In this document: piece by piece, positions 19,758 to 41,940 of the stretch | Numbering within the stretch: position 1 is the first letter of the stretch | Layout: the number at the start of each line of letters is the position of its first letter | Assembly: GCA_040772785.1 (NCBI GenBank) | Contig: JAXGXM010000008.1 | Span: forward strand, 6,344-70,343 | Source of the DNA: Anaerolineaceae bacterium | Lineage (GTDB): Bacteria; Chloroflexota; Anaerolineae; Anaerolineales; Anaerolineaceae | DNA: 64,000 nucleotides | Direction: 5' to 3' | Notes under the pieces: model-generated | Database searches by the model: none | What the model saw: only the letters and a program-made list of their open reading frames with translations | Told to the model about the DNA's origin: nothing | Made by a program: the position numbers and the translations under genes

Positions 19758-20702
19758 CTAATTATACTGAATAGGTTGTACATCGCGCTGCCCGGTTTGT
19801 TTTTTATCGCCAGCCGGGTCGCGGGGGTAATAGAAAGCCTTCTTCAAGTGCCACGTTAGTGGACCGGACAGCCGGTAGCCCTGGTAGGTTCCGTAGAACT
19901 GACGCCAGCGAAAACCAGCGATCTTCCACCAGTTGGCTGAAAACGCTTTTTGCCGCCCGGCTTCCCGCCAATCGCTGATCACGTTTTGAAAAAATAGTTT
20001 GCCGAGATCGCGCAAATGGAAGGTCTCGTGCGGGTAGATGCGCTTAAAAGCCATCGCTTCACGTTTGTAGCGGTTGAAGATGCCCGCCAGGCTTTCGTTG
20101 TGTACGTGGATCACCTCGGCTTCAGCGCTGTAGGTGATGCCGTGTCCCTGTTCCTGCGCCCACTTACCCCATTCAAGGTCTTCCAGACCAGGCAGTGTTT
20201 CGTCGTAGGCATGTTCTTCCCATAGCTTGCGCCGGATGGCAGAATTGGCATTATTGCAAAAAGGAAGAGTCTGCCACTTAACCGATTCGTCGGGATACCA
20301 GTGATGAAAGATCTGGTGTTCTGAAAAGTGCGTGGTCGCTGCGCCGCGTTGTTTTCCATAAACCAGCGCGATTCGATCGTCTTCAAATGGTTCCAGCAGT
20401 CGCTCCAACCAATCCGGATAGACCGGGTACACGTGGGCGCTTGCCATCACGATTATCGGCGCGGCGGCATGTTGGATGCCGAGGTTGAGCGAACGTCCGA
20501 AGGTGAAATCCTGGGGGGCGATTTCAACGATCTCCACGGGGTAGTCCTGCGCAACGAGCCTGGTGTTGTCCGTTGAACCAGAGTCAACCAGGATGATCTG
20601 CGTGTTTTTTACACGCTGTTCCTGTATGCCTTGCAGCAGCCGGCCGAGGTGTTTTTCCTCGTTATACGCGCGAATGATGATCGAGCACTGCGGATTGGTC
20701 AT
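19758..20702 (-). CDS. Glycosyltransferase family 2
   Basis: CSIIIRAYNEEKHL and VDSGSTDNT. Confidence 0.8.
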   Translation of the reverse strand: MTNPQCSIIIRAYNEEKHLGRLLQGIQEQRVKNTQIILVDSGSTDNTRLVAQDYPVEIVEIAPQDFTFGRSLNLGIQHAAAPIIVMASAHVYPVYPDWLERLLEPFEDDRIALVYGKQRGAATTHFSEHQIFHHWYPDESVKWQTLPFCNNANSAIRRKLWEEHAYDETLPGLEDLEWGKWAQEQGHGITYSAEAEVIHVHNESLAGIFNRYKREAMAFKRIYPHETFHLRDLGKLFFQNVISDWREAGRQKAFSANWWKIAGFRWRQFYGTYQGYRLSGPLTWHLKKAFYYPRDPAGDKKQTGQRDVQPIQYN

Positions 20703-22309
20703 AACGGGTAGGTTAGCTCTCCTTTTCCAAGGATTCCATCCAGCAATGTTTTAACCGTAGCTGATTGCTCTGGTGTCAACCGATCGAGCGGAAAATCCTT
20801 GAGTTTCACATAGCCCTTCCATATTTGATCATCTTCCAGGAATTCGCCAAATTCCAGGGATGTTGCGAACAGCTGGTAGTATAGAAAGCGCCTGGCGTTG
20901 TGCATGAATTGCGGGGGAATTTCGATATCGTCAGCGGATAACAGCTGTTCCAGGAGCTGATTGTATGTCTCCGGAGAAGAGGGGTAGAATGCGGTTTCGA
21001 GCTGCGTAAAACGCGCTTTTCCTCCCGCGATGACCGGTTTTCCGAGCAGCGTGGCTTCCAACCCGATGGTCGAGTTGTACACCATTACCAGGTGTGAACG
21101 ATGTATAAGTTCATAGGAATTTACAAATTCATTGCTGTCGTAAAAAACCACGTTTGGCAGATCAAGAATTCCTGAGGCGCGCACCCAATTCCCCACGCTT
21201 TCGCGGCTCTCCTTCCCGGGGCGGCTTTCATCCGGGTGGGCGCGCAAAACGAAGAGGATCGCGGGGTGAGCACGGGCGATCTCCTGCACATTTTCCAGCC
21301 AGGCGAACATGTGGGAAAAGATCGTGTTGGCGTGCACCTGGCTTGTATCGAAGATGACATTTGTGAAAACCGGAACGATTTTGCTGTACTTTTCAGCTTT
21401 CTCGATGAATGCTGGGTCCAGAGGCTTGATCTCAGGCCAGAAGCGGATGCCCGCCATTGAGAAGTCTCCTTTGAACCGGTCAGCCAGGTAATCATCCAGG
21501 CGTTTGTTCATTTCAGCACTCAGTTGAAAGCCCGGGTCGATATCCATCGGGTAAGCGGTAGCTTCACCTGTTGTGAAGAAAGCGGTGTAAGGGCGCAGAC
21601 CTACTTCGTGAGTGATCACACGAATGCCTTTTTGCAGGCAGGCGTGACGGACTGCCGCCTCGGGGTAGAACATGCCGTTAAATACAACTACAGCACGAGG
21701 GTTTTCTGTTTGGATCAGGTTGGAAAACTGGTGGTAGACGTTCCAGGCAGAAATGATGAACGCGCGCATAAAAGCACGATTTTGTTCATTATCCAGCAGG
21801 GTGTGGCGGCGCAGTACCCAGCGCAGCGAGTTGAGCGCCCAGAATCCCAGCGGGTTTTCCTGGTAAGTGAAGGATTCCAGTTCATTCACGGAGAGATCCG
21901 AGAGCAATTGTTCCAACTCGGGGTATTCCTCAGCCTTAAACCAGCGCGTATCCATACCGCTGAAAACCGCCCGGCTTTGCCTGGTGCAGTACTCGCACGG
22001 GGGAGGAGTTGTGAAATCATCCCGGTTGCTGCCCAGCACACAGCGCTCAAGACCTCTGTCACACACAAACTGGATAACCGGTACCCCTGCCAGCCTCACC
22101 ATCAGGGCGGTCAGCAGTGAATACGCCGCGTTCTGGCTCATCGCCTGTAACCGGGTCGAAGCGTTGAAGAAGATGACCGGACGCCTGTCATCGGTTTTCA
22201 ATGCTTCTTGGTTCACATTTTCAATTAGCGCCTGCCAGCGCTGATTGCCTTTACGGTGCACCAATCGCTGGCGGATGCCGTTCTTTATCCTCTGGTAGGT
22301 AGGTTTCAA
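20699..22309 (-). CDS. Capsule polysaccharide biosynthesis (KpsC/KpsS, Capsule_synth)-like protein
   Basis: LRAHPDE and VYNSTIGLEATLLGKPVIAGGKARF resemble the KpsS/KpsC C-terminal core. It has an extra Cys cluster CDRGLERC...CEYC. It is a paralog of 36767-38371. Confidence 0.5.
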   Translation of the reverse strand: MKPTYQRIKNGIRQRLVHRKGNQRWQALIENVNQEALKTDDRRPVIFFNASTRLQAMSQNAAYSLLTALMVRLAGVPVIQFVCDRGLERCVLGSNRDDFTTPPPCEYCTRQSRAVFSGMDTRWFKAEEYPELEQLLSDLSVNELESFTYQENPLGFWALNSLRWVLRRHTLLDNEQNRAFMRAFIISAWNVYHQFSNLIQTENPRAVVVFNGMFYPEAAVRHACLQKGIRVITHEVGLRPYTAFFTTGEATAYPMDIDPGFQLSAEMNKRLDDYLADRFKGDFSMAGIRFWPEIKPLDPAFIEKAEKYSKIVPVFTNVIFDTSQVHANTIFSHMFAWLENVQEIARAHPAILFVLRAHPDESRPGKESRESVGNWVRASGILDLPNVVFYDSNEFVNSYELIHRSHLVMVYNSTIGLEATLLGKPVIAGGKARFTQLETAFYPSSPETYNQLLEQLLSADDIEIPPQFMHNARRFLYYQLFATSLEFGEFLEDDQIWKGYVKLKDFPLDRLTPEQSATVKTLLDGILGKGELTYPL

Positions 22310-23181
22310 TCCTGGATCCGTCTCAATTTTCGCAGCGAAGGTTTTTCGCTTTCATAGACTTTTTTGACACCATCACCGATTGCGGCTTCAGTGACGCGGA
22401 TGTATTTCACCAGTCTCTCAAAGCCGCCCGGTTCAACGGAAGCTGCCTGGTCTGAACCCCAAAGCGCCCGGTCGAGTGTAATGTGGCGCTCCACCAGGCA
22501 AGCGCCCAATCCCACCGCCACAGCAGAGGTGACCAAACCGACCTCATGACCCGAATATCCAATCGGGCAGTTGAACATGTCGCGCAGGGTGTGGATCATT
22601 CGCAGGTTCAACTCATACGGGTCGCATGGGTAGGAACTGGTGGTGTGGGTGATGATGAGGTTGTCTTCACCGATCAGGCTTACCGCAGACTTGATCTGGT
22701 CGAGGGTGGACATTCCCGTGGAAAGGATAAGAGGCCTGCCGGTCGACCGTAGGTGTTTCAGGAGACCGCTATCGGTAAGCGAGGCTGAAGGAACTTTGTA
22801 AGCGATGGGATTGTATTTTTCCATGAAATCGACAGAGGGTTCATCCCATACGGAGACAAACCAGTCTATACCCGTCTCGCGTGCGAAAGAGTCAATGTCA
22901 TCATATTCCTCTTCCGTAAATTCCACCTTGTAGCGATAGTCCAGGTACGAGATGTAACCCCAGGGGGTCTCGCGCATCTGGTTGCGCTGATCAAGGGGAA
23001 CACACAATTCCGGTGTCCGCTTCTGAAATTTCACTGCGTCCACATTAGCGCGCTTGCCAACCTGGATGAGTTCCTTGGCGATGCCAAGATCTCCGTTATG
23101 GTTGATCCCGATCTCGGCGACGAGATACGCCGGGTGACCATCACCGATCCATTTGTTTCCGATCTTTACTTCTCTTGCCAT
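22306..23181 (-). CDS. NeuB-family (N-acetylneuraminate/ulosonate) synthase lacking the C-terminal SAF domain
   Basis: YLVAEIGINHNGDLGIAKELI..DAVKFQKR and GYSGHEVG. The likely start is the MAREVKIG ATG at 23181, 22 nt after the upstream stop. That gives ~291 aa ending right after the TIM barrel. Confidence 0.8.
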   Translation of the reverse strand: MAREVKIGNKWIGDGHPAYLVAEIGINHNGDLGIAKELIQVGKRANVDAVKFQKRTPELCVPLDQRNQMRETPWGYISYLDYRYKVEFTEEEYDDIDSFARETGIDWFVSVWDEPSVDFMEKYNPIAYKVPSASLTDSGLLKHLRSTGRPLILSTGMSTLDQIKSAVSLIGEDNLIITHTTSSYPCDPYELNLRMIHTLRDMFNCPIGYSGHEVGLVTSAVAVGLGACLVERHITLDRALWGSDQAASVEPGGFERLVKYIRVTEAAIGDGVKKVYESEKPSLRKLRRIQD

Positions 23182-23203
23182 TGAATTCTCCTGTGAAAAG
23201 AGG

Positions 23204-24445
23204 TTATTTACCAAATTTTTGTAAAAGCATATCGCAGAATTCCCGCACTGCACCGCGGCCACCCTTGCGATTAAGGACAAGGTCAGCGCTTCTTATAACT
23301 TCGGGTTCCGCGTCAGCAGGCACAACAGCGTACCCTGCCATGTCAAGGCATCCCAGGTCGTTGACATCATTACCGATGAACACGATCTCTTCTGCTGAAA
23401 TCCCCTTTTGCTGCATCACATTGCGCAGCACAGCGGGTTTGTCTTTTATCCCCTGGTAGACTTCCAGTTTGAGTTTTTTGCAGCGAGCTGTTACCACCGG
23501 GTTGACCTCGGTGGAGATGACGATAAACTCAATGGGTAACGCTTCGCGTACCAGCCGGATGCCCATGCTGTCGCCGCGCGACGTTGCCACTTTCTCAACA
23601 CCATTTTCATCTACATAAACGATATTGTCGGTCAACACGCCGTCAAAATCCATCGCTACCAGCGAAATCTTAGATGGAAAATGCCGTCTCCGGCTGGCAG
23701 GATCGACCATGTCAAGGTCGCCGTTGCGCACAAGCCATTCGTAGCGCTGCCAGTCAAACGGCGTATCGATATCCACTGTGTAGCGGGCGTCAATTAAGTA
23801 AGGGAGTATCACTTTGCCGCTCATGGAGGCCTGCTCAAGGATGACACTCGGGCGGATGACATCGATGTGCCCGGTCTGCCAGTAAGTGGGTGGCAGCGCC
23901 TGTCGCGGAGAATTGAATGGTTCAGCCAGGTCTTCAAGTTCAAGCAGCGGGGTCATTGGCTGATCCTTGCCAGTCAACCGCCACATTTTGTAGGGGTTCT
24001 GACCGCTGGGCACCACCCCGCGCACGCTGTCCGCTTCAGGATGTTTTTGCAGGAGCGCGACCGCCTCATCCACGCATTGACGCGGGCGGATGGGGGAGGT
24101 GGGGCGCAGTTGGATCACCAGGTCAGGCGAATAGTTCTCGTTGTCTTTCAGCCATTTCAGGGCGTGCTCAAAAACCGGCAGGTCAGTGGTCTGATCCTGC
24201 GCCAGTTCCGGTGGGCGGATGAAAGGTGTCTCAGCGCCAAATTGCCGCGCAACCGCGGCGATCTCCTCGTCATCGGTCGAAACGATCACCCGGGTGACGC
24301 TCTGAGATTGCAGTGCAGCGGCGATGCTGTAACTGATCAGCGGATAACCGGCGAACAGTTTGATGTTCTTGCGCGGAATGCCTTTGGAGCCGCCGCGCGC
24401 CGGGATCACTGCGAGGACTTCTGTTCTCTTTACCACGCTGTCCAT
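23204..24445 (-). CDS. Fusion protein: CMP-N-acylneuraminate cytidylyltransferase (N-terminal) plus HAD KdsC-type phosphatase (C-terminal)
   Basis: The N-terminal part has AVIPARGGSKGIPRKN, VSTDD and LRPTSP. The C-terminal part has MDFDGVLTDN, SRGDSMG and IGNDVNDL (HAD motifs I-IV, subfamily IIIA KdsC/NANP-like). Confidence 0.8.
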   Translation of the reverse strand: MDSVVKRTEVLAVIPARGGSKGIPRKNIKLFAGYPLISYSIAAALQSQSVTRVIVSTDDEEIAAVARQFGAETPFIRPPELAQDQTTDLPVFEHALKWLKDNENYSPDLVIQLRPTSPIRPRQCVDEAVALLQKHPEADSVRGVVPSGQNPYKMWRLTGKDQPMTPLLELEDLAEPFNSPRQALPPTYWQTGHIDVIRPSVILEQASMSGKVILPYLIDARYTVDIDTPFDWQRYEWLVRNGDLDMVDPASRRRHFPSKISLVAMDFDGVLTDNIVYVDENGVEKVATSRGDSMGIRLVREALPIEFIVISTEVNPVVTARCKKLKLEVYQGIKDKPAVLRNVMQQKGISAEEIVFIGNDVNDLGCLDMAGYAVVPADAEPEVIRSADLVLNRKGGRGAVREFCDMLLQKFGK

Positions 24446-25251
24446 CCTCCATCAACGATTACGTTGCCGCCTGTCATATATGAAGATGCGTCAGATGCCA
24501 GGAAGAGCAGCGCGCCGTTCATTTCATCCCTCTGCGCCATGCGCCCAATGACGGTGCGTGCGGAATAGTTGCGCACGAACTCCTCGTCATGATTGTTGTA
24601 TACCCCACCCGGCGTGAGCGCGTTGACGCGAATCTCGCTGCCGGCGTAATAAGTCGCCAGGTATTTGGTCAACCCCAGAATACCCGCCTTGGTGACCGTG
24701 TAGTAAACCGGTTTGAAAACTTTGGGCTGCCCGGGTTTTTCATAGATACGCTGGTCCGGTCCGCCAAGTCCGTAGGTGGAGCAGATATTGATGATCGACC
24801 CTTTGCCCTGTTTTACCATCTGACGCGCCGCTGCCTGTGAGACCAGGAAAGGTCCGGTGAGGTTGACGTTCAACGCGTCCTGCCACGACTGCAAAGGATA
24901 GGATTCGAACGCATTGCTGCTATCCTGCGTGTGCTCAGGGTCGAACTTGGGGTCGAGGGCGGCGCTGTTCACCAGCACATCGAGATGACCGGTATTGGCT
25001 ACGATCTGATCGATAACCGAGGCGGCTGAGGTTGAGTCGGTCACATCCAATCTGATCCCGTGAGCCGTGTATCCAGCAGCGCGCAAGGTGTCGGCAACCG
25101 CTTCTACCGCCTCAGCGTTGAGATCAGCGGCATAAACGACCGCGCCAGCCTGTGCCAGGGTTAGGCAGAACTCTTTTCCTAAAAGCCCAGCGCCGCCTGT
25201 AACGAGGGCTGTCTTGCCTTTTAGTGAGAATTTTTCAAATATTTCGGACAT
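24430..25251 (-). CDS. Short-chain dehydrogenase/reductase (SDR)
   Basis: TGGAGLLGK, NSAA and Y-x3-K (YTVTK). Confidence 0.85.
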   Translation of the reverse strand: MSEIFEKFSLKGKTALVTGGAGLLGKEFCLTLAQAGAVVYAADLNAEAVEAVADTLRAAGYTAHGIRLDVTDSTSAASVIDQIVANTGHLDVLVNSAALDPKFDPEHTQDSSNAFESYPLQSWQDALNVNLTGPFLVSQAAARQMVKQGKGSIINICSTYGLGGPDQRIYEKPGQPKVFKPVYYTVTKAGILGLTKYLATYYAGSEIRVNALTPGGVYNNHDEEFVRNYSARTVIGRMAQRDEMNGALLFLASDASSYMTGGNVIVDGGWTAW

Positions 25252-30737: not shown

Positions 30738-31685
30738 TCACTCGTTTTTACTCAGCGTGATCTCAATTCTCTGTTTCATCCTTTTGTCTTTTTTTCTATC
30801 TTTTATTGCCTGTATCGGATTTAGGATCGTGTAAAAAAACTTTGCAAGTCGTGGTGATTTCAGGTGCAGCAAAGGGAATATACTAATTTCCCGGATGAAC
30901 TGCTCACGGGAGAAGGGTTGTCTCACGATCCTGCCCTGAGAAATCATCTTATTGGTGTCATACAGGGTGAACATCCGTTCCCGCCCGCCTGCCATCACAA
31001 GATTATCAAGTGATTCCGGTTGTGTGCGGTGGATCGTTCCGCCGGGAAGATGGCTATAGTCATGGTTCTGATGAATGGCAGTGATCCCGCCGGTGGCGTT
31101 GATGACGGCCATTTTCTGCCGGCGTGCCTGGAAGATCATCCAGTTATCCCAACCGGCGCGTCCCACGGCAAAGGCGGGAATATCCACGAATTCGTTGCGT
31201 GGGAAGATAAAGTAATCACTCCCAACCGCGGCATGTAAATTCGCGGATTGCAGGCAGTCAGGGACAAATTTCTCACCCCAACCCGTGTTGATGTCCAGTT
31301 CAGAAGTGATCTCTGCGTCCCAACGTTGACCGATCAGCAGGAACCGCTCACAACTATTGCGGGCTAGTTCCAGTGTTTGCAGCATGTCCGGGAAGAGGAG
31401 CATATCCGCGTTAACATAACAAAGGAAAGGCGCGTTACTTCGTTCGCGCACGGTGTTGAAGATCGAGTCGATTCTGGGGGTACCCGCGCTGTTGCGCTCT
31501 ACGTCTGGGATGAAACCCACCCCAAATTCAGCCGCGTTTTCCGCGACACCTTCTTCGTCCGCCACCAGCCAGATCTCTACAGCATCTCCGAGGGCTTTCC
31601 AGCTGCGGATGGCATTGCGCTGAATAACCCGGATATGCGGATTTGTGAACGGCTTTGGTGCGGTGAAGATGGCGAGTCGGGTCAT
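30738..31685 (-). CDS. Hypothetical protein, possible GT-A-like glycosyltransferase
   Basis: The only support is a DxD-like YVNADMLLFPD after a Rossmann-like N-terminus. Confidence 0.35.
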   Translation of the reverse strand: MTRLAIFTAPKPFTNPHIRVIQRNAIRSWKALGDAVEIWLVADEEGVAENAAEFGVGFIPDVERNSAGTPRIDSIFNTVRERSNAPFLCYVNADMLLFPDMLQTLELARNSCERFLLIGQRWDAEITSELDINTGWGEKFVPDCLQSANLHAAVGSDYFIFPRNEFVDIPAFAVGRAGWDNWMIFQARRQKMAVINATGGITAIHQNHDYSHLPGGTIHRTQPESLDNLVMAGGRERMFTLYDTNKMISQGRIVRQPFSREQFIREISIFPLLHLKSPRLAKFFYTILNPIQAIKDRKKDKRMKQRIEITLSKNE

Positions 31686-31755: not shown

Positions 31756-32514
31756 TCATTTTCTTGCCGCTTCGTGGTCCAGGTAAGATTTGTGTTTTAC
31801 CCGTGCATTGACCTCAAACATTTTGGGCTTCTCCTGCCATAACTGTACTACATCCAGCCAGGAAAAATCGTTTCCGCCTTTGAAGTGCCGGTAAATCCGA
31901 CGCAGGAGCGTCAAATCTTCGGGGGTGTCAAGCGTCCAGCGCAGGTCCCCCAAGTCTTCGCTGTGGTTAAGTTGCAGTACCTTGAACCTGCCGGGAACTG
32001 CGTATAGGTAAGGGAGAACATGTTCGCGTTCGTGTTTTTGTCGGGCGTTCTCCCAGGCGTTCTCAAGTGCTGCAAAGGTGCAGGCTTCGACGTCCAGCCC
32101 GATCGGATAGGTGCGGGTGAATGGCGGCGGCAGCCGGTTGCAGGCAAAGTCCGATTGCTTTTCTGTCAACGCATGCACGACATCATCGATCAGGCGCGGG
32201 TCGATCAGTGGACAGTCACCGGTAAGCCGAACCACAATATCCGCCTCATATTGTTTCGCTGCCTGGTAGTAACGGTCGAGCACATCCGGCAGGCTGCCGC
32301 GATAGACCTCTGTGGCATACCTGCGGCAGGCGCTGACAATCGCGTCATCTGACGGATCGGTGGTGGTCGCCACGATGACCTGGTCGATTGTTGAAGCTTT
32401 CCGCACACGCTCAAGCATGCGATCGAGCATGGTTCTGCCGTAAGCGTTTTTAAGTACCTTGCCGGGAAGGCGGGTGGAAGACATGCGCGCCTGGATGATC
32501 GCCACAACTCTCAT
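31756..32514 (-). CDS. SpsF-type cytidylyltransferase (CTP_transf_3 family)
   Basis: VAIIQARMSSTRLPGKVLK and RLTGDCPLIDP are typical of SpsF/PseF-like enzymes. Confidence 0.75.
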   Translation of the reverse strand: MRVVAIIQARMSSTRLPGKVLKNAYGRTMLDRMLERVRKASTIDQVIVATTTDPSDDAIVSACRRYATEVYRGSLPDVLDRYYQAAKQYEADIVVRLTGDCPLIDPRLIDDVVHALTEKQSDFACNRLPPPFTRTYPIGLDVEACTFAALENAWENARQKHEREHVLPYLYAVPGRFKVLQLNHSEDLGDLRWTLDTPEDLTLLRRIYRHFKGGNDFSWLDVVQLWQEKPKMFEVNARVKHKSYLDHEAARK

Positions 32515-33638
32515 TCGGTGCCTGTCTTAATACCGGAAACCCGGTTTTGTTGGCTGTTTGCCGCTTCATAGGCTTGCAGAAGTACGGGGAAGTTGCTTCG
32601 CCAATCGGCTTTTTGCTCTGCCATGGCGCGGGCGCGGGCAGCGTATTCCACTAGAGCGGGTTCATGCCGGGCTGTGTGCATCAGCGCTGACATCTCATCA
32701 GCATCTCCATCGTGAAAAATCCATCCCTGTTCACCACTGCTTACCCATTCGCGGTTCCCGGGAATATCCGAGACAATGCCGGGCAATCCGCACGCCAGGG
32801 CTTCCAGCAGTGAGACAGAGGACCCATCGCAATGGGATGCGCTGAGGAAAATATCCGCGCTGCGGTAGGTGTACGGCAGTTCATCACGGCTCACGTATCC
32901 GCCAAAGTGGACTTTGTCCGTTACGCCGGCTTTTTCTACCATGCTGCGCAAAATCTGCTCCTGTGATCCTTTTCCGTATAGGAGCAGACGAATTTCAGGA
33001 TTACTCTCTGTAGCCTTGATAAATGCCCGCAGTGTCAAATCTACGCCGTAGATAGGTTCAAATGAACGGTTGCTGAGGAAGACGAAGTTGTCCTTCCAGC
33101 CGAGTTTTTCACGCAAACCAGCACCGCCTTGAGGTGTGAAATGCGCCAGATCAACACCCCACGGGAAGCGATAGATGCGTTCGGATGGAAAATTATATTC
33201 CCTGGTGGCTTTATCAGCCACCGCAAGGCAGTCGCAAACAAAAACCGCGCTGTAGTCGAGCGCGTGCTGGATCTTCGCGCGTGCGTCAGAATCCACCTCG
33301 CCATCGTGCAGAATATCCGCTCCCCACGACATGCTTACCAGGCGCGGAAAACTGCTCAGGGCAGCGATATGGGCAGGGCTGTGCAACGGTCCCGCGTGGA
33401 TTACATCGGGTTTTATTGAGTGGATCACCTGTTTAAGTTTTCCAACTTGTTCTGCTGGTGTTACGAGAGGTCCTGTTCCTTCTGTCGATGTTTTGACCTC
33501 GCTGATCCCCGCCGGCAGCTGCACAGGCTGGCTTGGTTCGAGGCGCAGCAGAAAGATCTCGTGCCCGCTGGTGCCGAGCGCAGTGAGGAACCGCTCATCG
33601 TGCGGTGAATAATCCCGCGTGAAATACAGGACCTTCAA
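32511..33638 (-). CDS. Glycosyltransferase family 4 (GT-B)
   Basis: SASHCDGSSVSLLEALACGLPGIVSD (E-x7-E region). Confidence 0.8.
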   Translation of the reverse strand: MKVLYFTRDYSPHDERFLTALGTSGHEIFLLRLEPSQPVQLPAGISEVKTSTEGTGPLVTPAEQVGKLKQVIHSIKPDVIHAGPLHSPAHIAALSSFPRLVSMSWGADILHDGEVDSDARAKIQHALDYSAVFVCDCLAVADKATREYNFPSERIYRFPWGVDLAHFTPQGGAGLREKLGWKDNFVFLSNRSFEPIYGVDLTLRAFIKATESNPEIRLLLYGKGSQEQILRSMVEKAGVTDKVHFGGYVSRDELPYTYRSADIFLSASHCDGSSVSLLEALACGLPGIVSDIPGNREWVSSGEQGWIFHDGDADEMSALMHTARHEPALVEYAARARAMAEQKADWRSNFPVLLQAYEAANSQQNRVSGIKTGTE

Positions 33639-33639
33639 T

Positions 33640-34707
33640 TTACTCTCCCAGGTCCACCCAGCGCAGCTCCCTGCCGGCGGGTAGATCCTTCAAAGCTCGC
33701 GTGCCAATTACCCGGTTGACCTGGTCGGGACGGATGGCGCCGGGGGTAGCCGGGCGAAGGACGTCGATCATGTCGCGGGTTAAAATCTCACCCGCTTTTA
33801 TCTCGCGCGCAGCGCGCAGACAGCGGCGTTGAACGATGGTCGTGTCTTTTTCGTTGCCGCTGATGGTTTTATCCGCTGACCCCATCGCGCGTTCCAGTTC
33901 ACGGGTGCGATCGACCATATCATGCCAGGTTTCCGGCGTCATGGAAAACGGGTGATCGGGTCCGACTCGTGAAGTATCATCAGTGAAGTGTTTCTCTACT
34001 ACCCTGCCGCCCAGCGCGATCGCGCCAAGCACCGTGGCGTGCCCGTGCGTGTGGTCGGATAAGCCCACTGTGATACCCGGGAACAGTGTTTGATAGGTCT
34101 GCAGTACGCGCAAATGAATGTGATCAAAATTGACCGGGCTGGCTGTGTAATTGGTGTTGCATTGCAGTAGCACCAGCTGGGGATTGATCGCCAGAACGGT
34201 GTGCACCGCCTGCTGCACCTCGCCAATGCTGGCGGCGCCGGTGGATAGGATGACCGGTTTGCCTTTGCGGGCGATATATTCAAGCATCTCAAGCCAGTCA
34301 ACATCTCCTGAGCCGATCTTGTGAGCGGGAACGAATGGATCGAGGTAGTCCACCGCTTCGAAGTCATAGGGGGAGGAGAAATAATCGATGCCGACCTTAT
34401 CGCATTCCTCTTTCAGGATGGGTGTCCAATCGAAGGGTATCGAAGCGTCGGAATAGACCTCAAAAACACTTTTCTTCCAGGTTGACTGATGGGAAACCTG
34501 CCCCTGCATTGCCTTAAAGCCGTAATCAGATACGATCCTGGCTGCGCGGAAGTTCTGAAACTTGGCGGCATCAGCGCCGGCTTCTTTGGCGAGCTTGATC
34601 AGCAGTTTAGCACGCTCAAGGCTGCCGTCGTGGTTCGCTGAGATGTCCGCGATGAAGTAGGTGGGATGTTCCGGACCGATCAGGTGACTGCCAATTTTTA
34701 CGTCCAT
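33640..34707 (-). CDS. neuB: NeuB/SpsE-type nonulosonic acid synthase with C-terminal SAF domain
   Basis: YFIADISANHDG, DAAKFQNF and LSDHTHG. The C-terminal REIKAGEILTRDMIDVLRP is the SAF domain. Confidence 0.85.
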   Translation of the reverse strand: MDVKIGSHLIGPEHPTYFIADISANHDGSLERAKLLIKLAKEAGADAAKFQNFRAARIVSDYGFKAMQGQVSHQSTWKKSVFEVYSDASIPFDWTPILKEECDKVGIDYFSSPYDFEAVDYLDPFVPAHKIGSGDVDWLEMLEYIARKGKPVILSTGAASIGEVQQAVHTVLAINPQLVLLQCNTNYTASPVNFDHIHLRVLQTYQTLFPGITVGLSDHTHGHATVLGAIALGGRVVEKHFTDDTSRVGPDHPFSMTPETWHDMVDRTRELERAMGSADKTISGNEKDTTIVQRRCLRAAREIKAGEILTRDMIDVLRPATPGAIRPDQVNRVIGTRALKDLPAGRELRWVDLGE

Positions 34708-34730
34708 GTCATCTCCTTTTGGTTTAGGTT

Positions 34731-35648
34731 CTAAGCGAGTGACTTGATATAAAGAGGATACCCGCGCCGGTGCTGGTCGTAGAATTTCTGCAGACCGCCG
34801 GCAAAATCGGGCAGGTCATGCCCTAATGCTGCGTGTAATTTTTCGGTTGAAAGGGTCAGGTTGGGGGAACGGGCGGCTTTAAGCCCGCTTTCTTTGATTG
34901 AAACCGGTTTGATCAGCGCCGGGTCAAACCCGAACTTTTCAGCGATCCGTTTACCAAATTCAAACTTGCTCATCGCTTCTGGTCCAACCATGTGGTAAAT
35001 ACCGCGCAGGTCAAGCGATGAAACCTCCACGAGCAACGCGCTGAGATCGAGGATATTCATCGGGCAGAAATTAACATCGGTGAAGCCCATCATCTCTTCG
35101 TTCTGTGAAAGTCTGTTGACAAAATTTTCCGCCAGGCTGCGATTGCCTGCCGCGCTCCAACCGTAAAAATTCACCCTTGTGATCAACGCCTCAGCGTTGG
35201 CTGCGAGAACGGCGTGCTCACCATCCAGCTTGGTTTGCGCGTAAACACTGAGCGGATTTGGTTCATCGTTTTCGTTGTAATTGCCGCTGCTGCCATCAAA
35301 AACCGCGTCTGTAGATATGTGGATCATGCGCACGGAGTGTTTCTGACACGCTGCCGCGATCACGCCGGGTAGTTCTGCATTGACCTGGTGCGCCAGTTGA
35401 GGGTCGTTTTCGCAGGCGTCCACATTTGCCATCGCGGCGCAGTGCAGGATGACATCAGGTTTGTGCGTGTTGATCAGCTCTTTGATCACGCCCTGTTTGG
35501 TAAGTTCGGCTTCAACATTCTTAAAGGTTGCCCACATCAGCGGAGCGGTGTTCGCCACCCCGGTGACCTGGTGCTTTTTGCCGTCAACTGCCAGGGCAAA
35601 GTTGAGTCCTAAAAGACCGCTGACGCCGGTAACAAGAAAGTGGGTCAT
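34731..35648 (-). CDS. RmlD-like NAD(P)-dependent sugar nucleotide 4-reductase/epimerase
   Basis: LVTGVSGLLG, and YAQTK for Y-x3-K. The likely start is MTHFLV at 35648, forming an ATGA overlap with the pseB-like stop. Confidence 0.7.
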   Translation of the reverse strand: MTHFLVTGVSGLLGLNFALAVDGKKHQVTGVANTAPLMWATFKNVEAELTKQGVIKELINTHKPDVILHCAAMANVDACENDPQLAHQVNAELPGVIAAACQKHSVRMIHISTDAVFDGSSGNYNENDEPNPLSVYAQTKLDGEHAVLAANAEALITRVNFYGWSAAGNRSLAENFVNRLSQNEEMMGFTDVNFCPMNILDLSALLVEVSSLDLRGIYHMVGPEAMSKFEFGKRIAEKFGFDPALIKPVSIKESGLKAARSPNLTLSTEKLHAALGHDLPDFAGGLQKFYDQHRRGYPLYIKSLA

Positions 35649-36655
35649 CCCAATCTCCCGGCTTCGTAATCGGCCTGAATGGGCGCGATGATGGTGCGAA
35701 TAGCATCCACATCCAACCACGCGTCGTTAGTATTCGAAGCGTATCGAAAACCGTCTTCCAACAGGCGCCCCTTGCTTTCCCAGTCGCGTCCAAACCACAG
35801 GGATTCTGCCGGCTGAACGACATACATATCCTCCAGCTCGATCGTCTGGCGGGCTTCATCATCAGAAATCAGCACCTCGTGAAGTTTTTCACCAGGGCGA
35901 ATGCCGATGTACTCGATCTTCGCATCCGGGGCGATTGCGCGTGCAAGATCTGTCACCGTCATACTGGGAATTTTTGGCACAAAGACCTCGCCGCCGTGCA
36001 TGTTCTCGACCGCCTGGATCACAAAACGCACACCCTGCTCGAGGCTGATCCAGAAACGCGTCATGCGCTCGTCGGTGATGGTCACTTTGCCGGAGGCGCG
36101 CTGTTTGAGGAACACCGGAACCACTGATCCGCGGCTGCCCACTACGTTGCCATAGCGCACGCAGGAGAAACGGGTGTTCTTCGCCCCGGCGTAAGCGTTG
36201 GATTGCACAAACAGTTTTTCAGCCGCAAGTTTGGTTGCGCCGTAAAGGTTGACCGGATTGACTGCCTTATCAGTGCTGAGTGCGACCACACGGCTCACTC
36301 CAGCGTCGATTGCGGCGTCGATGACATTACCGCTGCCGAGGATATTGGTCTTGATCGCTTCCATGGGGTTGTACTCGCAGGCCGGAACCTGCTTGAGCGC
36401 CGCGGCATGGATGACCACGTTGACACCTTCAAACGCCCGGCGGCAGCGCTGCTGATCGCGGATATCTCCGATGAAGTAGCGCAGGGAAGGGTGATTGAAC
36501 CCCGCTGCCTGCATTTCGTACTGCTTCAATTCATCCCGACTAAAGACGATCAATTTCTGCGGGTGATATTCCTTCAGCATGATGTCGATGAATTTTTTGC
36601 CAAAGGAGCCTGTTCCACCGGTTACAAGTACAACACTTTTTTTCCAATCGATCAT
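35645..36655 (-). CDS. pseB: UDP-N-acetylglucosamine 4,6-dehydratase (inverting), PseB/FlaA1-like
   Basis: Similarity to recalled H. pylori PseB runs along the whole length: LVTGGTGSFGK, FSRDELKQ, FIGDIRD, HAAALKQVP, YGATKL, RYGNVVGSRGSVVP, MTRFWI, MHGGEVFVPKIPS and IGIRPGEKLHEV. Confidence 0.8.
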   Translation of the reverse strand: MIDWKKSVVLVTGGTGSFGKKFIDIMLKEYHPQKLIVFSRDELKQYEMQAAGFNHPSLRYFIGDIRDQQRCRRAFEGVNVVIHAAALKQVPACEYNPMEAIKTNILGSGNVIDAAIDAGVSRVVALSTDKAVNPVNLYGATKLAAEKLFVQSNAYAGAKNTRFSCVRYGNVVGSRGSVVPVFLKQRASGKVTITDERMTRFWISLEQGVRFVIQAVENMHGGEVFVPKIPSMTVTDLARAIAPDAKIEYIGIRPGEKLHEVLISDDEARQTIELEDMYVVQPAESLWFGRDWESKGRLLEDGFRYASNTNDAWLDVDAIRTIIAPIQADYEAGRLG

Positions 36656-36766: not shown

Positions 36767-38371
36767 TTATTTCCCATAGTTGCTATCCATCATTCTCGTA
36801 AAGGTCATGGTGTCAAATGTTGCACGATATTTTTTCATTCCGCTCGCGGAGAGTACATTTTTCATGGGGTTGAGTTCGAGGTCGTCTTTCAACTGCCCCA
36901 TCTTCCATGGGTAGGGAAGCTGGAATCTGAAGAAAAACAAATAGGCGTATTTCCACGCGAGATTTACCCGCTCTGCGCTGAGCCGTTTCTCACGGGTGTT
37001 TTCGAGGAGTAGATTCAGTAATTTAAAGTATTCAACATAGGTGCCAGGATCATGAGTAAAACCGCGATTGCGATAGTGGGTCTTTCCCGCCACCACAACC
37101 GGAATACCCCTCAGCGCCATTTCCAGGCCGACGGTGGTCGTGTACACAAGACCAAGGTCAGCCACATCCATCAGGTCATACGTGTTGACCTCGTCCAGTG
37201 GTTCGATCAGCTTGATGTGAGGAGGCAGCTGGGGTAGTGTTTTACGGATCATGTCCAGGATGCTGCCGCGTTTCACCAGCGCTTCACCAGGGTGAATCCG
37301 GATTACCAGTTGAACTCCGGGGCGCTCAATGAAGTATTGAATGGTACGGATGATCCATTCGGTCATCGATTTTGTGAAGGTATTTCTGCCCAGGGTGAGG
37401 CTGTCTCCCAATACGTTTGTAGCGAGTAGAACAACCGGTTCATCAGTAAGGCCCAGTTTTTCCTTGATAATTGCCTGTCCTTCTGCCGGGATGCGCTGCC
37501 ATTTGCGGGTGTAATCGCCGTAAGTGGTCGCGTTGCTGCGGGAAGTAAGCAGCACGCGGGTTTCTTCAAGTTCAGAGCGGGAAAGTTTGTAATCAGCGTA
37601 CGCTTTCCACAACGTATCGGTATTCTGCTGCATGATCTCATCATTTTGCGCCAGCCACATTGACCCGCGTCTGTCACTGAACTCATAGGTGGAGGTTGGA
37701 ATCTTGAGGAAGCGGCACACCCGATAGGCAACGCCGAACTCAAGAATGGTGCCGTTGGGGATGATGGCGACATCCGGTTTATTCCTGCGAAGGTAGTGAT
37801 AAAGCGCTTTTGCTGCGTGCTGGTTGCGACGGTAGCGGAACTGGTAAAAGGGGTCTTCGCGATCGACTTCCTCGCTTTGGAAGTAGTACATGAAATCGTA
37901 ATCTGTCACCTGGTCCACTTCAGCGGAAAGTTTACTGGGAAGCTGTGCGAATGATGCGTTGTTGCGCAGAAAATTCTCAAATTGGATAAATTGGGCAGCT
38001 GTCTTCAGCACGGTATTGGCGTAAAAATTCTGCCGCCGGATGTCAAACTGGGTGGCATCGTCGCTCCAACGACCGTAAGGATAATATCCCACGCTGACAT
38101 CATGTCCCATTCCTGAAAGTGCGAGACCGGTCATCACCGTATGTTCTATCCAGTAATGAGTGGAGGCGAACAGGAAAACCTTTTTGCCGGCAGGGTGATC
38201 TTCGCGTGATTTTCCGACCACTGCTACCGATTCCGCCATAACTTCACGAATCGTCTTAAGTGAAAAATTGGATGGCAGCTGGTGGCTGTTTTGGCGTAAT
38301 AACCAGTACACCTCAGCTGTTAGGGGTAGTTCGCCTAGTACTTTCTTAACGGTTTCTTTTCTGCTCGCCAT
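36767..38371 (-). CDS. Capsule polysaccharide biosynthesis (KpsC/KpsS, Capsule_synth)-like protein
   Basis: IRIHPGE and VYTTTVGLEMALRGIPVVVAGKTHY. It is a paralog of 20699-22309. Confidence 0.5.
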   Translation of the reverse strand: MASRKETVKKVLGELPLTAEVYWLLRQNSHQLPSNFSLKTIREVMAESVAVVGKSREDHPAGKKVFLFASTHYWIEHTVMTGLALSGMGHDVSVGYYPYGRWSDDATQFDIRRQNFYANTVLKTAAQFIQFENFLRNNASFAQLPSKLSAEVDQVTDYDFMYYFQSEEVDREDPFYQFRYRRNQHAAKALYHYLRRNKPDVAIIPNGTILEFGVAYRVCRFLKIPTSTYEFSDRRGSMWLAQNDEIMQQNTDTLWKAYADYKLSRSELEETRVLLTSRSNATTYGDYTRKWQRIPAEGQAIIKEKLGLTDEPVVLLATNVLGDSLTLGRNTFTKSMTEWIIRTIQYFIERPGVQLVIRIHPGEALVKRGSILDMIRKTLPQLPPHIKLIEPLDEVNTYDLMDVADLGLVYTTTVGLEMALRGIPVVVAGKTHYRNRGFTHDPGTYVEYFKLLNLLLENTREKRLSAERVNLAWKYAYLFFFRFQLPYPWKMGQLKDDLELNPMKNVLSASGMKKYRATFDTMTFTRMMDSNYGK

Positions 38372-39634
38372 TTAGTGAACTTCCTCGATTCTCCAATCCA
38401 GCCTGGGGCGTATCGGACCATGCCTTACTTCCATCCATTGCATGCCTGGTGCCCCGGTGGGGTTGATGTTGAAATTGATCGCGCGTTCATCCGCGAAGTA
38501 TCTCTTTACCCGATACGAGCTCGCGTTGACGCCGACCACAAAGCGTCCTTCGTTCAGAGTGTCCTCCGGGATTGTGCAGCGGCTGACGTAACGACCCGCC
38601 TTGCGCACGCCGAGCGACTGGAATTTTTCAGCCTCGTCGGTGTCGAAGGATGTGAGAATGAAATCTCCCTGGGAGGTCATCAGGTAAACACCGACGCGCA
38701 GCCCTGTGATGTCGGCATCCAGCTGGTATTCCACCTCGATCGTTAATGGCTCCACTGAAAGCAGATTGTCGGTTGTGACGCCGGTTTTGTTCTTTACGCG
38801 CACCGCGATCGGTTTGAATGGATACGCGATCGAGGGAATCTCCTCAGCGTGGTATTTGCGCTCACCGCTGGCGGAGAGGTCGTTAGTCAGGTAGTAATCC
38901 ACCGCTTCAGCGGTAGGGGCGCGCAAGATCATACTGCCTTTGTCGAGGATGATACATTCGTGCGTGAGACGCTGGATGGCTGACATATTGTGGCTGACGA
39001 AAATGACGGTGCGACCTTCAGAAGCGACGTCGCTCATTTTTCCCAGGCATTTGCGCTGAAACTCCGCATCGCCGACTGCCAGTACTTCATCCACTACCAG
39101 GATCTCCGGCTCAAGGTGCGCGGAGACGGCAAATGCCAGGCGCATATACATACCGCTTGAGTAACGTTTTACCGGGGTGTCAATGAATTTTTCGATCTCC
39201 GAAAAAGCCACGATCTCATCGAATTTTTGCTCGATCTCCCCTTTTTTCATACCCAGCACAGCGCCGTTCAGGAAGATGTTCTCGCGCCCGGTCAATTCGG
39301 GGTGGAACCCGGTGCCAACTTCCAAAAGTGAACCGACCCGTCCGTGGATCTCTGCCATACCTTCGGTAGGTTCGACCACGCGTGAAAGGATCTTGAGTAG
39401 GGTGCTTTTGCCAGCGCCGTTCTTACCGATGACACCCAGAACCTGGCCGTGGTCGAGCTCGAAATTGACATGGCGCAGCGCCCAGAACTTCTCACTGCCG
39501 GTGGGGTTGATGAGAGTTTTTATCGGGCTCTTCACCACCTCCACGATCTTCTCGCGCAGGGTCATGTACTGGTTTTCTTTGAAGATGTTGTATTCTTTGC
39601 CGATGTTATCGACGCGAACAGCGAGGTTACTCAT
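38372..39634 (-). CDS. Polysaccharide ABC exporter ATP-binding protein (Wzt/TagH-type) with C-terminal glycan-binding beta-sandwich domain
   Basis: Walker A GKNGAGKST, signature YSSGM and Walker B ILVVDE. About 170 aa follow the NBD. The real start is MSNLAVRV at 39634, after GAGGAAAAAA; the 544-aa track ORF is an upstream extension. Confidence 0.85.
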   Translation of the reverse strand: MSNLAVRVDNIGKEYNIFKENQYMTLREKIVEVVKSPIKTLINPTGSEKFWALRHVNFELDHGQVLGVIGKNGAGKSTLLKILSRVVEPTEGMAEIHGRVGSLLEVGTGFHPELTGRENIFLNGAVLGMKKGEIEQKFDEIVAFSEIEKFIDTPVKRYSSGMYMRLAFAVSAHLEPEILVVDEVLAVGDAEFQRKCLGKMSDVASEGRTVIFVSHNMSAIQRLTHECIILDKGSMILRAPTAEAVDYYLTNDLSASGERKYHAEEIPSIAYPFKPIAVRVKNKTGVTTDNLLSVEPLTIEVEYQLDADITGLRVGVYLMTSQGDFILTSFDTDEAEKFQSLGVRKAGRYVSRCTIPEDTLNEGRFVVGVNASSYRVKRYFADERAINFNINPTGAPGMQWMEVRHGPIRPRLDWRIEEVH

Positions 39635-39645
39635 GCTTTTTTCCT

Positions 39646-40500
39646 CTAAATCATATCGGCGAACTGTTTTTCCATACGCCGGAAGTAGAACATACCTGTG
39701 ATAAGGATAACAATGGCGATGACCACCGAGAGGAGGATCATCAGAACCGAACCGGAACGGGCTGTGCCCAGCAGAGCGTAGCGGAATCCTTCCACCACCC
39801 CTGTCATGGGGTTCAGGAAGTAGATCAAACGCCACTTTTCTGGGATCATGGTTGATGAATAAACGACCGGGGTCAGGTACATCCACAGGTTGCTGATAAA
39901 CGGCATGATGTACCCTACGTCGCGGTAGCGCACCATTAACGCCGAGGTCCAAAAACCGACCCCAAGCGCGGTGACCAGCGCCAGCAGGATCAACAGCGGC
40001 AGCCATAAGGTGGCGAGAGTTGGAGTGACCTTGTAATAGATCATCATGCCGATGAGGATGATGAACCCAATGAAGAAGTCCACCACGCTCGACATCACCG
40101 ATGCCAACGGCACGATCATGCGCGGGAAATAGATCTTTGACACCATGTTGCTATTGGCGACCATCGACCGGCTGGCGACGCTCAATGCCGCGGCAAAGAG
40201 TTCCCATGGCAGCGTGGCTGTGTAGGAGAAAATGGGATACGGGACGCCATCCGAGGGGATCTTGGCAAAATTGCCGAAGAAAATAGTGAAAACGACCATT
40301 GCCATAAATGGCTTCAGTATCGCCCACAGGATACCCAAAACGGACTGTTTGTAGCGTACTTTTATGTCGCGCCACGTGAGGAAGTAGATCAGCTCGCGGT
40401 ATGCCCACAAATCGCGCAGGCGCAGCCCCACCCAGCCTTTGGAAGGCTTGATGAGTACCACGTTGGGCTTCTTTTTCTGGTCAAGTGTACTGGTTGTCAT
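39646..40500 (-). CDS. ABC-2 type polysaccharide exporter permease (Wzm/TagG-type)
   Basis: Six TM segments and an N-terminal YRELIYFLTWRDIKVRYKQSVLGILWA signature. The likely start is MTTSTL at 40500. Confidence 0.8.
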   Translation of the reverse strand: MTTSTLDQKKKPNVVLIKPSKGWVGLRLRDLWAYRELIYFLTWRDIKVRYKQSVLGILWAILKPFMAMVVFTIFFGNFAKIPSDGVPYPIFSYTATLPWELFAAALSVASRSMVANSNMVSKIYFPRMIVPLASVMSSVVDFFIGFIILIGMMIYYKVTPTLATLWLPLLILLALVTALGVGFWTSALMVRYRDVGYIMPFISNLWMYLTPVVYSSTMIPEKWRLIYFLNPMTGVVEGFRYALLGTARSGSVLMILLSVVIAIVILITGMFYFRRMEKQFADMI

Positions 40501-40502
40501 AA

Positions 40503-41940
<1,438 letters not shown>

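Follow-up and report, generated by a model that had tools for sequence, protein, structure and literature searches.

A conserved gene cassette of Anaerolineaceae as a candidate reductase branch of pseudaminic-acid-type nonulosonic acid biosynthesis

How might a gene cluster that begins with the first enzyme of pseudaminic acid synthesis, and ends with a nonulosonic acid synthase and a cytidylyltransferase, function with a reductase among its genes and no aminotransferase, acetyltransferase or nucleotide-releasing hydrolase? The question is raised by a five-gene cassette at positions 31756-36655 (minus strand) of a 64,000-nucleotide stretch of Anaerolineaceae DNA (G000:C8:6344-70343, hereafter the window), part of a 2.23 Mb assembly of 10 contigs that is 86.8% complete and whose close relatives, when species-representative genomes are scanned with its NeuB protein, are Anaerolineaceae. 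Nonulosonic acids influence how bacterial surfaces are built, how flagella assemble and how hosts and phages recognise the cell. To our knowledge, the characterised routes to neuraminic (Neu), legionaminic (Leg) and pseudaminic (Pse) acids all have a nucleotide-releasing step, and those to Leg and Pse also aminate C4. We consider it probable, though well short of certain, that the cassette is a reductase branch of a Pse-type pathway, giving a 9-deoxy sugar with a hydroxyl at C7; the case is one of comparative genomics, built from gene content and synteny.

Enzymes were identified by their Pfam and NCBIfam (TIGR) profile scores, in bits, relative to the cut-off of each model. In coding order, and all on the minus strand, the cassette encodes a PseB-like dehydratase (35645..36655), an RmlD-like reductase of the short-chain dehydrogenase/reductase (SDR) type (34731..35648), a NeuB-family synthase with a SAF domain (33640..34707), a GT4 (GT-B) glycosyltransferase-family protein (32511..33638) and an SpsF-type cytidylyltransferase of the CTP_transf_3 family (31756..32514). 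The PseB stop and the reductase start share an ATGA overlap, as do the GT4 stop and the SpsF start; the reductase and NeuB genes lie 23 nt apart, with a GGAGA motif in between, and the TTG start of GT4 lies one base past the NeuB stop codon. The two overlaps, together with gaps of just 1 and 23 nt, indicate that the five genes are tightly coupled. A preliminary description of this locus had placed the dehydratase, reductase, synthase and cytidylyltransferase within these coordinates and had noted the first of the overlaps, all of which is borne out by the sequence and by profile matches for the four genes; it had overlooked the 375-aa GT4 protein at 32511-33638, between NeuB and SpsF. Short, low-depth contigs from anaerobic-digester RNA libraries cover parts of PseB, NeuB, GT4 and SpsF, some of them spanning gene junctions, and most of the reductase gene has no contig from these libraries; because such contigs may derive from DNA carry-over, they are no proof that the cassette is transcribed.

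The 336-aa dehydratase scores 504.5 bits with TIGR03589, the model for UDP-GlcNAc 5-inverting 4,6-dehydratases (cut-off 407.75), and 255 bits with the FnlA model (cut-off 730). It matches Helicobacter pylori FlaA1 (PDB 2gn4) at 385 bits, as against about 233 for CapE, FnlA and CapD, and in alignment it keeps the TDK...YGATK motif (TDK...Yx3K). Its sequence thus marks it as a true PseB orthologue, of the PseB type rather than the FnlA/WbvB type. The 305-aa RmlD-like protein (PF04321, 208.6 bits; TIGR01214, 197 bits, below the cut-off of 224) has a YxxxK motif and would be a C4 ketoreductase acting on the PseB product. The 355-aa synthase (PF03102, 246 bits; PF08666, 38 bits) falls below the equivalog cut-offs of both the NeuB model (281.6/399.65) and the PseI model (264/340.25) and scores about 160 bits with each of SpsE (1vli), PseI (8h2c) and NeuB (1xuu). 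It has the motif KIGSGD, a three-residue insertion and, at nmNeuB position 184, a Thr, and on sequence grounds it appears to belong to a clade distinct from NeuB, PseI and SpsE. The 252-aa SpsF-type enzyme (PF02348, 122.6 bits) is likewise below every equivalog cut-off, including those of PseF (28.8/205.7) and KdsB, and would be a CMP-nonulosonate synthetase; at the Pfam level, the two proteins belong to the NeuB and CTP_transf_3 families, respectively. The 375-aa GT4 protein (PF00534, 109 bits) may be either a transferase of a cassette sugar or a candidate UDP-sugar hydrolase.

The genes that would complete a conventional Pse or Leg pathway were sought throughout the genome. No DegT-family match occurs on the contig that holds the window, and the sole strong DegT protein in the genome (344 bits, against a PseC cut-off of 423.5) is in another cluster on contig C9. 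Aminotran_3 has no match within 40 kb of the cassette, all genomic copies being farther off. PseG (TIGR03590) has no match anywhere in the genome, and nothing there exceeds the PseH cut-off (TIGR03585, 93.1), the best score being 67.6 bits on a different contig. No hydrolysing NeuC was found in the genome either: the sole Epimerase_2 protein, on another contig, is the non-hydrolysing WecB (478.5 bits; NeuC model 70.6/235.9), whose gene adjoins one for UDP-ManNAc dehydrogenase, and the genome has neither a second Epimerase_2 gene nor a WbvD/FnlC-type 2-epimerase. The earlier statement that PseC/LegC, PseH and PseG/NeuC-type genes are missing from the window therefore holds and can be extended to the genome, in which PseC, PseH, PseG and NeuC equivalogs are below cut-off or absent.

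Because the window genome is incomplete, we searched 60 further genomes of its order (61 in all) with the profiles for PseG, PseC and NeuC. Of these 60, 31 have the reductase orthologue, so that 32 genomes, about half of the sample, carry the cassette. Equivalogs of PseG, PseC and NeuC were found in none of the 32, which include the single-contig genomes G076 and G043, listed as 99% complete. The proteins in the sample that did exceed the cut-offs (PseG in 2 genomes, PseC in 3, NeuC in 2) were all in cassette-negative genomes.

The cassette is conserved as a unit. The NeuB scan yielded 80 Anaerolineae loci (69-89% identity), one of them from cultured Leptolinea tardivitalis YMTK-2 (L058), and the order PseB-reductase-NeuB-GT4-SpsF is kept in those long enough to show it, with GT4 always after NeuB. 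Some related loci have additional genes inserted (methyltransferase, Asn-synthase-like, PMT_2 and WD40 proteins), and none of these inserted genes encodes an aminotransferase, an acetyltransferase or a PseG-type or other hydrolase. One locus, L067, was considered as a natural variant without PseB and GT4 and was set aside, since its open reading frames are fragmented, most likely by long-read frameshift errors. In an evenly drawn sample of 400 Chloroflexota genomes, orthologues of the reductase and of NeuB occur in the same 35 genomes and are adjacent in 34 of them; the 35 comprise 34 sampled genomes of families f1-f3 and one distant genome, G391.

The module of G391 has PseB (53% identity to the cassette), RmlD-like (33%), NeuB (63%) and GT4 (31%) genes together with a CTP_transf_3 gene, the GT4 being a full-length orthologue that comes after NeuB. 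Wedged between its PseB and cytidylyltransferase genes is a 175-aa open reading frame (L109:11567-12094, minus strand) that corresponds to just the N-terminal half of a DegT aminotransferase, likely the relic of an ancestral PseC within what is now a reductase-type module.

Related modules exist well outside the Chloroflexota. An exhaustive search of 50%-identity representatives with the cassette NeuB recovered sister clades at 46-57% identity, and PseB, reductase, NeuB and CTP_transf_3 genes were found together on two metagenome contigs. A flagellin-glycosylation island of Lysinibacillus contains genes for flagellin, Maf, DUF8042, PseB, CTP_transf_3, an RmlD-like reductase, NeuB, a GNAT protein and a methyltransferase, with identities to the cassette of 62% for PseB, 42% for CTP_transf_3, 30% for the RmlD-like protein and 51% for NeuB. 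When the Lysinibacillus reductase was used as query, the same family was found in many Bacillales. The four-gene core lies beside Maf in flagellin-glycosylation islands of Lysinibacillus, Paenibacillus dendritiformis and a Lachnospiraceae metagenome-assembled genome (MAG), where the four core genes and Maf have no other sugar-forming genes with them; a Neisseriaceae MAG also carries the core. The gene that follows NeuB varies: in the Chloroflexota it encodes GT4, in Firmicutes and Neisseriaceae a PseH-like GNAT. The GT4 protein and a Glyco_trans_1_2 protein of Lysinibacillus were compared as a possible shared hydrolase, a candidate that we dropped because no similarity between them could be detected. 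Fusobacterium was not found among the names of the low-GC NeuB representatives or of the homologues of the Lysinibacillus reductase.

Comparison with the sister NeuB clades suggests what the reductase has replaced. These clades have the arrangement PseB-CTP-[DegT or Aminotran_3]-NeuB, and in L099, Lysinibacillus and G391 the slot of the aminotransferase is occupied by the reductase. At 42% NeuB identity, the cluster reached is of the Leg type and includes a NeuC-like epimerase. A maximum-likelihood tree of 12 NeuB sequences places the reductase-linked NeuBs, including that of the cassette, in one clade (support 99/98) that also holds one aminotransferase-fusion locus, with the aminotransferase/DUF218 clade as its sister. 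As a separate observation, the aminotransferase-type sister clusters L104 and L106 continue with a DUF218/YdcF protein and a ~210-aa protein that lacks annotation, and they too are without PseG.

Taken together, the substitution in the aminotransferase slot, the decayed DegT gene of G391, the strict linkage between reductase and NeuB, and the placement of the core beside Maf suggest that the reductase acts on the 4-keto product of PseB and that NeuB uses the resulting 4-hydroxy 6-deoxy-hexosamine. In the proposed pathway, PseB would dehydrate UDP-GlcNAc, as expected from its orthology, and the RmlD-like enzyme would then reduce the C4 keto group to give UDP-6-deoxy-L-AltNAc or its C4 epimer, at the position that PseC and PseH would aminate and acetylate. 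After removal of UDP, for which GT4 is one candidate, the NeuB-family synthase would join the free 6-deoxy-hexosamine and phosphoenolpyruvate, yielding a 5-acetamido-3,5,9-trideoxy-non-2-ulosonic acid with a 7-hydroxyl (C11H19NO8, calculated mass about 293 Da), which the SpsF-type enzyme would convert to its CMP-sugar. The latter would probably be transferred onto a glycan that the flanking glycosyltransferases assemble and the Wzm/Wzt ABC transporter exports. Of the two readings offered by the preliminary description, the reductase-NeuB linkage, the flagellin islands, the slot exchange and the failure to find PseC, PseG and NeuC in trans in cassette-bearing genomes favour the first, a 9-deoxy nonulosonic acid in which a hydroxyl stands where Pse and Leg have their second amino group.

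The only natural example we found of a sugar of the predicted kind is fusaminic acid, likewise a 3,5,9-trideoxy nonulosonic acid with a 7-hydroxyl. According to PMC9912281, PMC7371886 and PMC13014188 (citing Vinogradov et al. 2017), fusaminic acid (7-OH, 9-deoxy) co-occurs with 6-deoxy-L-AltNAc in the O-antigen of F. nucleatum ATCC 25586; it is described as having another C4 configuration than Pse and a C7 that bears a hydroxyl rather than an amino group, and as carrying an acetimidoyl group on N5. The second F. nucleatum residue, 6-deoxy-L-AltNAc, is the hexosamine expected from PseB and a 4-reductase, and UDP-6-deoxy-L-AltNAc could by analogy double as a direct glycosyl donor in Anaerolineaceae, a modified form of the donor role considered below. 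For fusaminic acid it is the chemistry that is described; the product of the cassette is predicted from gene content. Our literature search for a biosynthetic route or gene set for fusaminic acid or 6-deoxy-L-AltNAc found structural papers only, and no paper tying nonulosonic acids to Anaerolineae was among the matches listed.

Relative to the CMP-Pse pathway of Campylobacter jejuni and H. pylori (PseB, PseC, PseH, PseG, PseI, PseF), the cassette shares the first enzyme, the family membership of the last two and the expected 9-deoxy nonulosonic skeleton built from UDP-GlcNAc. It differs in having an RmlD-like reductase in place of PseC, PseH and PseG, in a synthase and cytidylyltransferase below the PseI and PseF cut-offs, and in a predicted 7-OH rather than 7-NHAc. 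Unlike the Neu5Ac pathway (NeuC, NeuB, NeuA), it has neither a NeuC nor a NeuB equivalog. It resembles the legionaminic acid genes of the Bacillus subtilis sps locus (SpsC, D, E, F, G and M; PMC7439481) in its SpsE-like NeuB with a SAF domain and its SpsF-type cytidylyltransferase, but the aminotransferase, acetyltransferase and PseG-like protein of that route are all missing from it. A short Polysacc_synt_2 dehydratase followed by a 4-reductase is also found in the pathways to UDP-L-RhaNAc/L-QuiNAc (WbvB, WbvR, WbvD) and UDP-L-FucNAc (FnlA/CapE, FnlB/CapF, FnlC/CapG), where the reductase substrate is UDP-4-keto-6-deoxy-L-HexNAc and WbvR is an RmlD-like 4-reductase. By contrast with these pathways, the cassette has a PseB-type dehydratase, from which no C3 epimerisation is expected, and no 2-epimerase, and its dehydratase-reductase pair invariably comes with NeuB and a cytidylyltransferase.

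Several observations weigh against the proposed pathway. NeuB-type synthases need a substrate freed from UDP, yet we identified no enzyme for UDP release, and every independent version of the module lacks PseG and NeuC homologues. A PseH-like GNAT lies directly after NeuB in the Lysinibacillus, Paenibacillus, Lachnospiraceae and Neisseriaceae versions (L102, L111, L112 and L110). It hints at an amino group to acetylate, and the reductase might act otherwise in those lineages; no aminotransferase was found in these four loci. The residue before the catalytic acid of the cassette NeuB is Gly, as in Neu and Leg synthases; Phe is reported at this position for Pse synthases, whose pattern is Phe, Ser (PMC7371886). 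The motif conforms exactly to neither the Pse nor the Neu pattern, which leaves the stereochemistry of the substrate uncertain. Moreover, the Anaerolineae synteny derives mostly from one vertical lineage, so its loci are not independent, and the window genome is itself only 86.8% complete. As to the missing release step, we suggest very tentatively that the four-gene core works without PseG or NeuC and that UDP is removed in a novel way, either by GT4, which in the Chloroflexota would act as a UDP-sugar hydrolase, or by one of the core enzymes through a second activity; this is possible rather than probable.

Three other explanations were weighed against the reductase branch. The one that survives best is that the cassette has two unrelated outputs, with PseB and the reductase making a UDP-6-deoxy-L-HexNAc donor for GT4 while NeuB and SpsF make some other ulosonic acid from another precursor. 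The location of GT4 inside the cassette, the presence of 6-deoxy-L-AltNAc as a glycan residue in F. nucleatum and the failure to find a UDP hydrolase that would join the two halves all fit this explanation, which we nevertheless judge unlikely. No other route to a NeuB precursor is present in the genome, since NeuC is absent and the sole 2-epimerase is WecB; among the 400 Chloroflexota genomes sampled, no reductase orthologue was found away from a neighbouring NeuB; and the flagellin islands pair the four genes with Maf and nothing else that would form a sugar. The specific form proposed in the preliminary description, a QuiNAc/RhaNAc-type donor, is not supported, the dehydratase not being FnlA/WbvB-type (255 bits against the FnlA cut-off of 730) and a WbvD/FnlC-type 2-epimerase being absent.

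Slightly less likely again is a different order of reactions, in which release and condensation of the 4-keto sugar come first and the RmlD-like enzyme acts later, reducing a 7-keto nonulosonate or its CMP form, or in which the reductase is not a simple ketoreductase and C7 is N-acylated where a GNAT is present. The PseH-like GNAT after NeuB in Firmicutes and Neisseriaceae modules without an aminotransferase would be explained in this way, and the PseB-CTP-reductase-NeuB gene order of several lineages departs from the reaction order of the reductase branch. The Anaerolineae cassette, however, is without a GNAT, RmlD-family enzymes are known as nucleotide-sugar 4-ketoreductases, and we know of no precedent for such chemistry. 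An ordinary Pse or Leg pathway completed by PseC, PseH and PseG (or LegC, LegH and LegG) encoded elsewhere or in the unassembled 13% is very improbable, for although the genome is 86.8% complete and its C9 DegT protein (344 bits) is encoded next to genes for a LegB-like dehydratase, a nucleotidyltransferase and a phosphoglycosyltransferase, that aminotransferase has a dehydratase of its own in what looks like a bacillosamine-type unit, the 32 cassette-bearing genomes are uniformly negative for PseG, PseC and NeuC, and the reductase would be left without a role.

Upstream of the cassette are genes for a MarR-type regulator, an Fcl-like SDR, Wzm, Wzt and a Capsule_synth-like protein, and downstream those for a 315-aa protein, several glycosyltransferases and a second ulosonic-acid module, the full order in those related loci long enough to show it being regulator, Fcl-like, Wzm, Wzt, Capsule_synth-like, PseB, reductase, NeuB, GT4, SpsF, 315-aa protein and GT2. 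The 534-aa Capsule_synth-like (KpsC/KpsS-like) gene (36767..38371, minus strand; PF05159, 26.8 bits over residues 308-443) is conserved directly upstream of PseB across related loci, and its product is a candidate transferase for the CMP-sugar. In loci L013-L091 the gap between this gene and PseB holds a ~290-aa methyltransferase in 49 and a 500-aa Asn-synthase-like protein in 8; the window has neither, the two genes being 110 nt apart. The Wzt-type ABC ATPase (38372..40006, minus strand; PF00005) has a C-terminal Wzt_C carbohydrate-binding domain (PF14524) and is conserved in related loci; these coordinates are those of the longest open reading frame, which at its 5' end overlaps that of Wzm (39646-40536, ABC2_membrane match), so that translation probably begins at an internal codon. 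At the operon head, the GDP-fucose-synthase (Fcl)-like SDR (40503-41486, minus strand; 313 bits against a cut-off of 500) is 67-90% identical across related loci. We rejected the idea that it, too, reduces the PseB product, since a true GMD, the sole one over cut-off, is encoded elsewhere in the genome, on contig C2, and a GDP-sugar role is simpler.

The 315-aa protein (30738..31685, minus strand), restricted to Chloroflexota and without a Pfam or NCBIfam match, comes after SpsF in nearly all related loci and has invariant residues that include N92, D94, H205, Q206 and H208. Its AlphaFold model (pLDDT 94) is matched by Foldseek to the GT2-type GT-A enzymes K4CP, WrtF and TarP (TM about 0.5). 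From this model, it is a probable glycosyltransferase of the same glycan as the cassette, and with a GT-A glycosyltransferase fold it was dropped as the missing UDP-sugar hydrolase.

Two other clusters of this genome involve related sugars. The second ulosonic-acid module of the window (22306-25251, minus strand) consists of a NeuB without a SAF domain, a cytidylyltransferase fused to a HAD protein resembling KdsC and Kdn-9-P phosphatases, and an SDR; it looks like a Kdn-type route through phosphorylated intermediates, in which nucleotide release is not needed. Two Capsule_synth paralogues of roughly 535 aa with weak KpsC/KpsS-like matches (20699-22309 and 36767-38371, minus strand) lie one beside each NeuB module, and both are candidate CMP-ulosonate transferases. 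On contig C9, a cluster at G000:C9:7600-13268 (L006) encodes a LegB-like 4,6-dehydratase, a sugar-phosphate nucleotidyltransferase, a DegT aminotransferase and a phosphoglycosyltransferase of 510 aa that is extended at its C terminus, probably a separate unit for a bacillosamine-type initiating sugar.

If the reductase branch is real, it would provide a gene set for a mono-amino, 7-hydroxy class of nonulosonic acids that we found reported only from Fusobacterium nucleatum, and it would raise the enzymological question of which enzyme removes UDP. The cassette is carried by about half of the sampled genomes of an order very common in sludge and sediment, and its core by flagellin islands of cultured Bacillales; because it occurs in culturable organisms, the pathway is open to experimental test.

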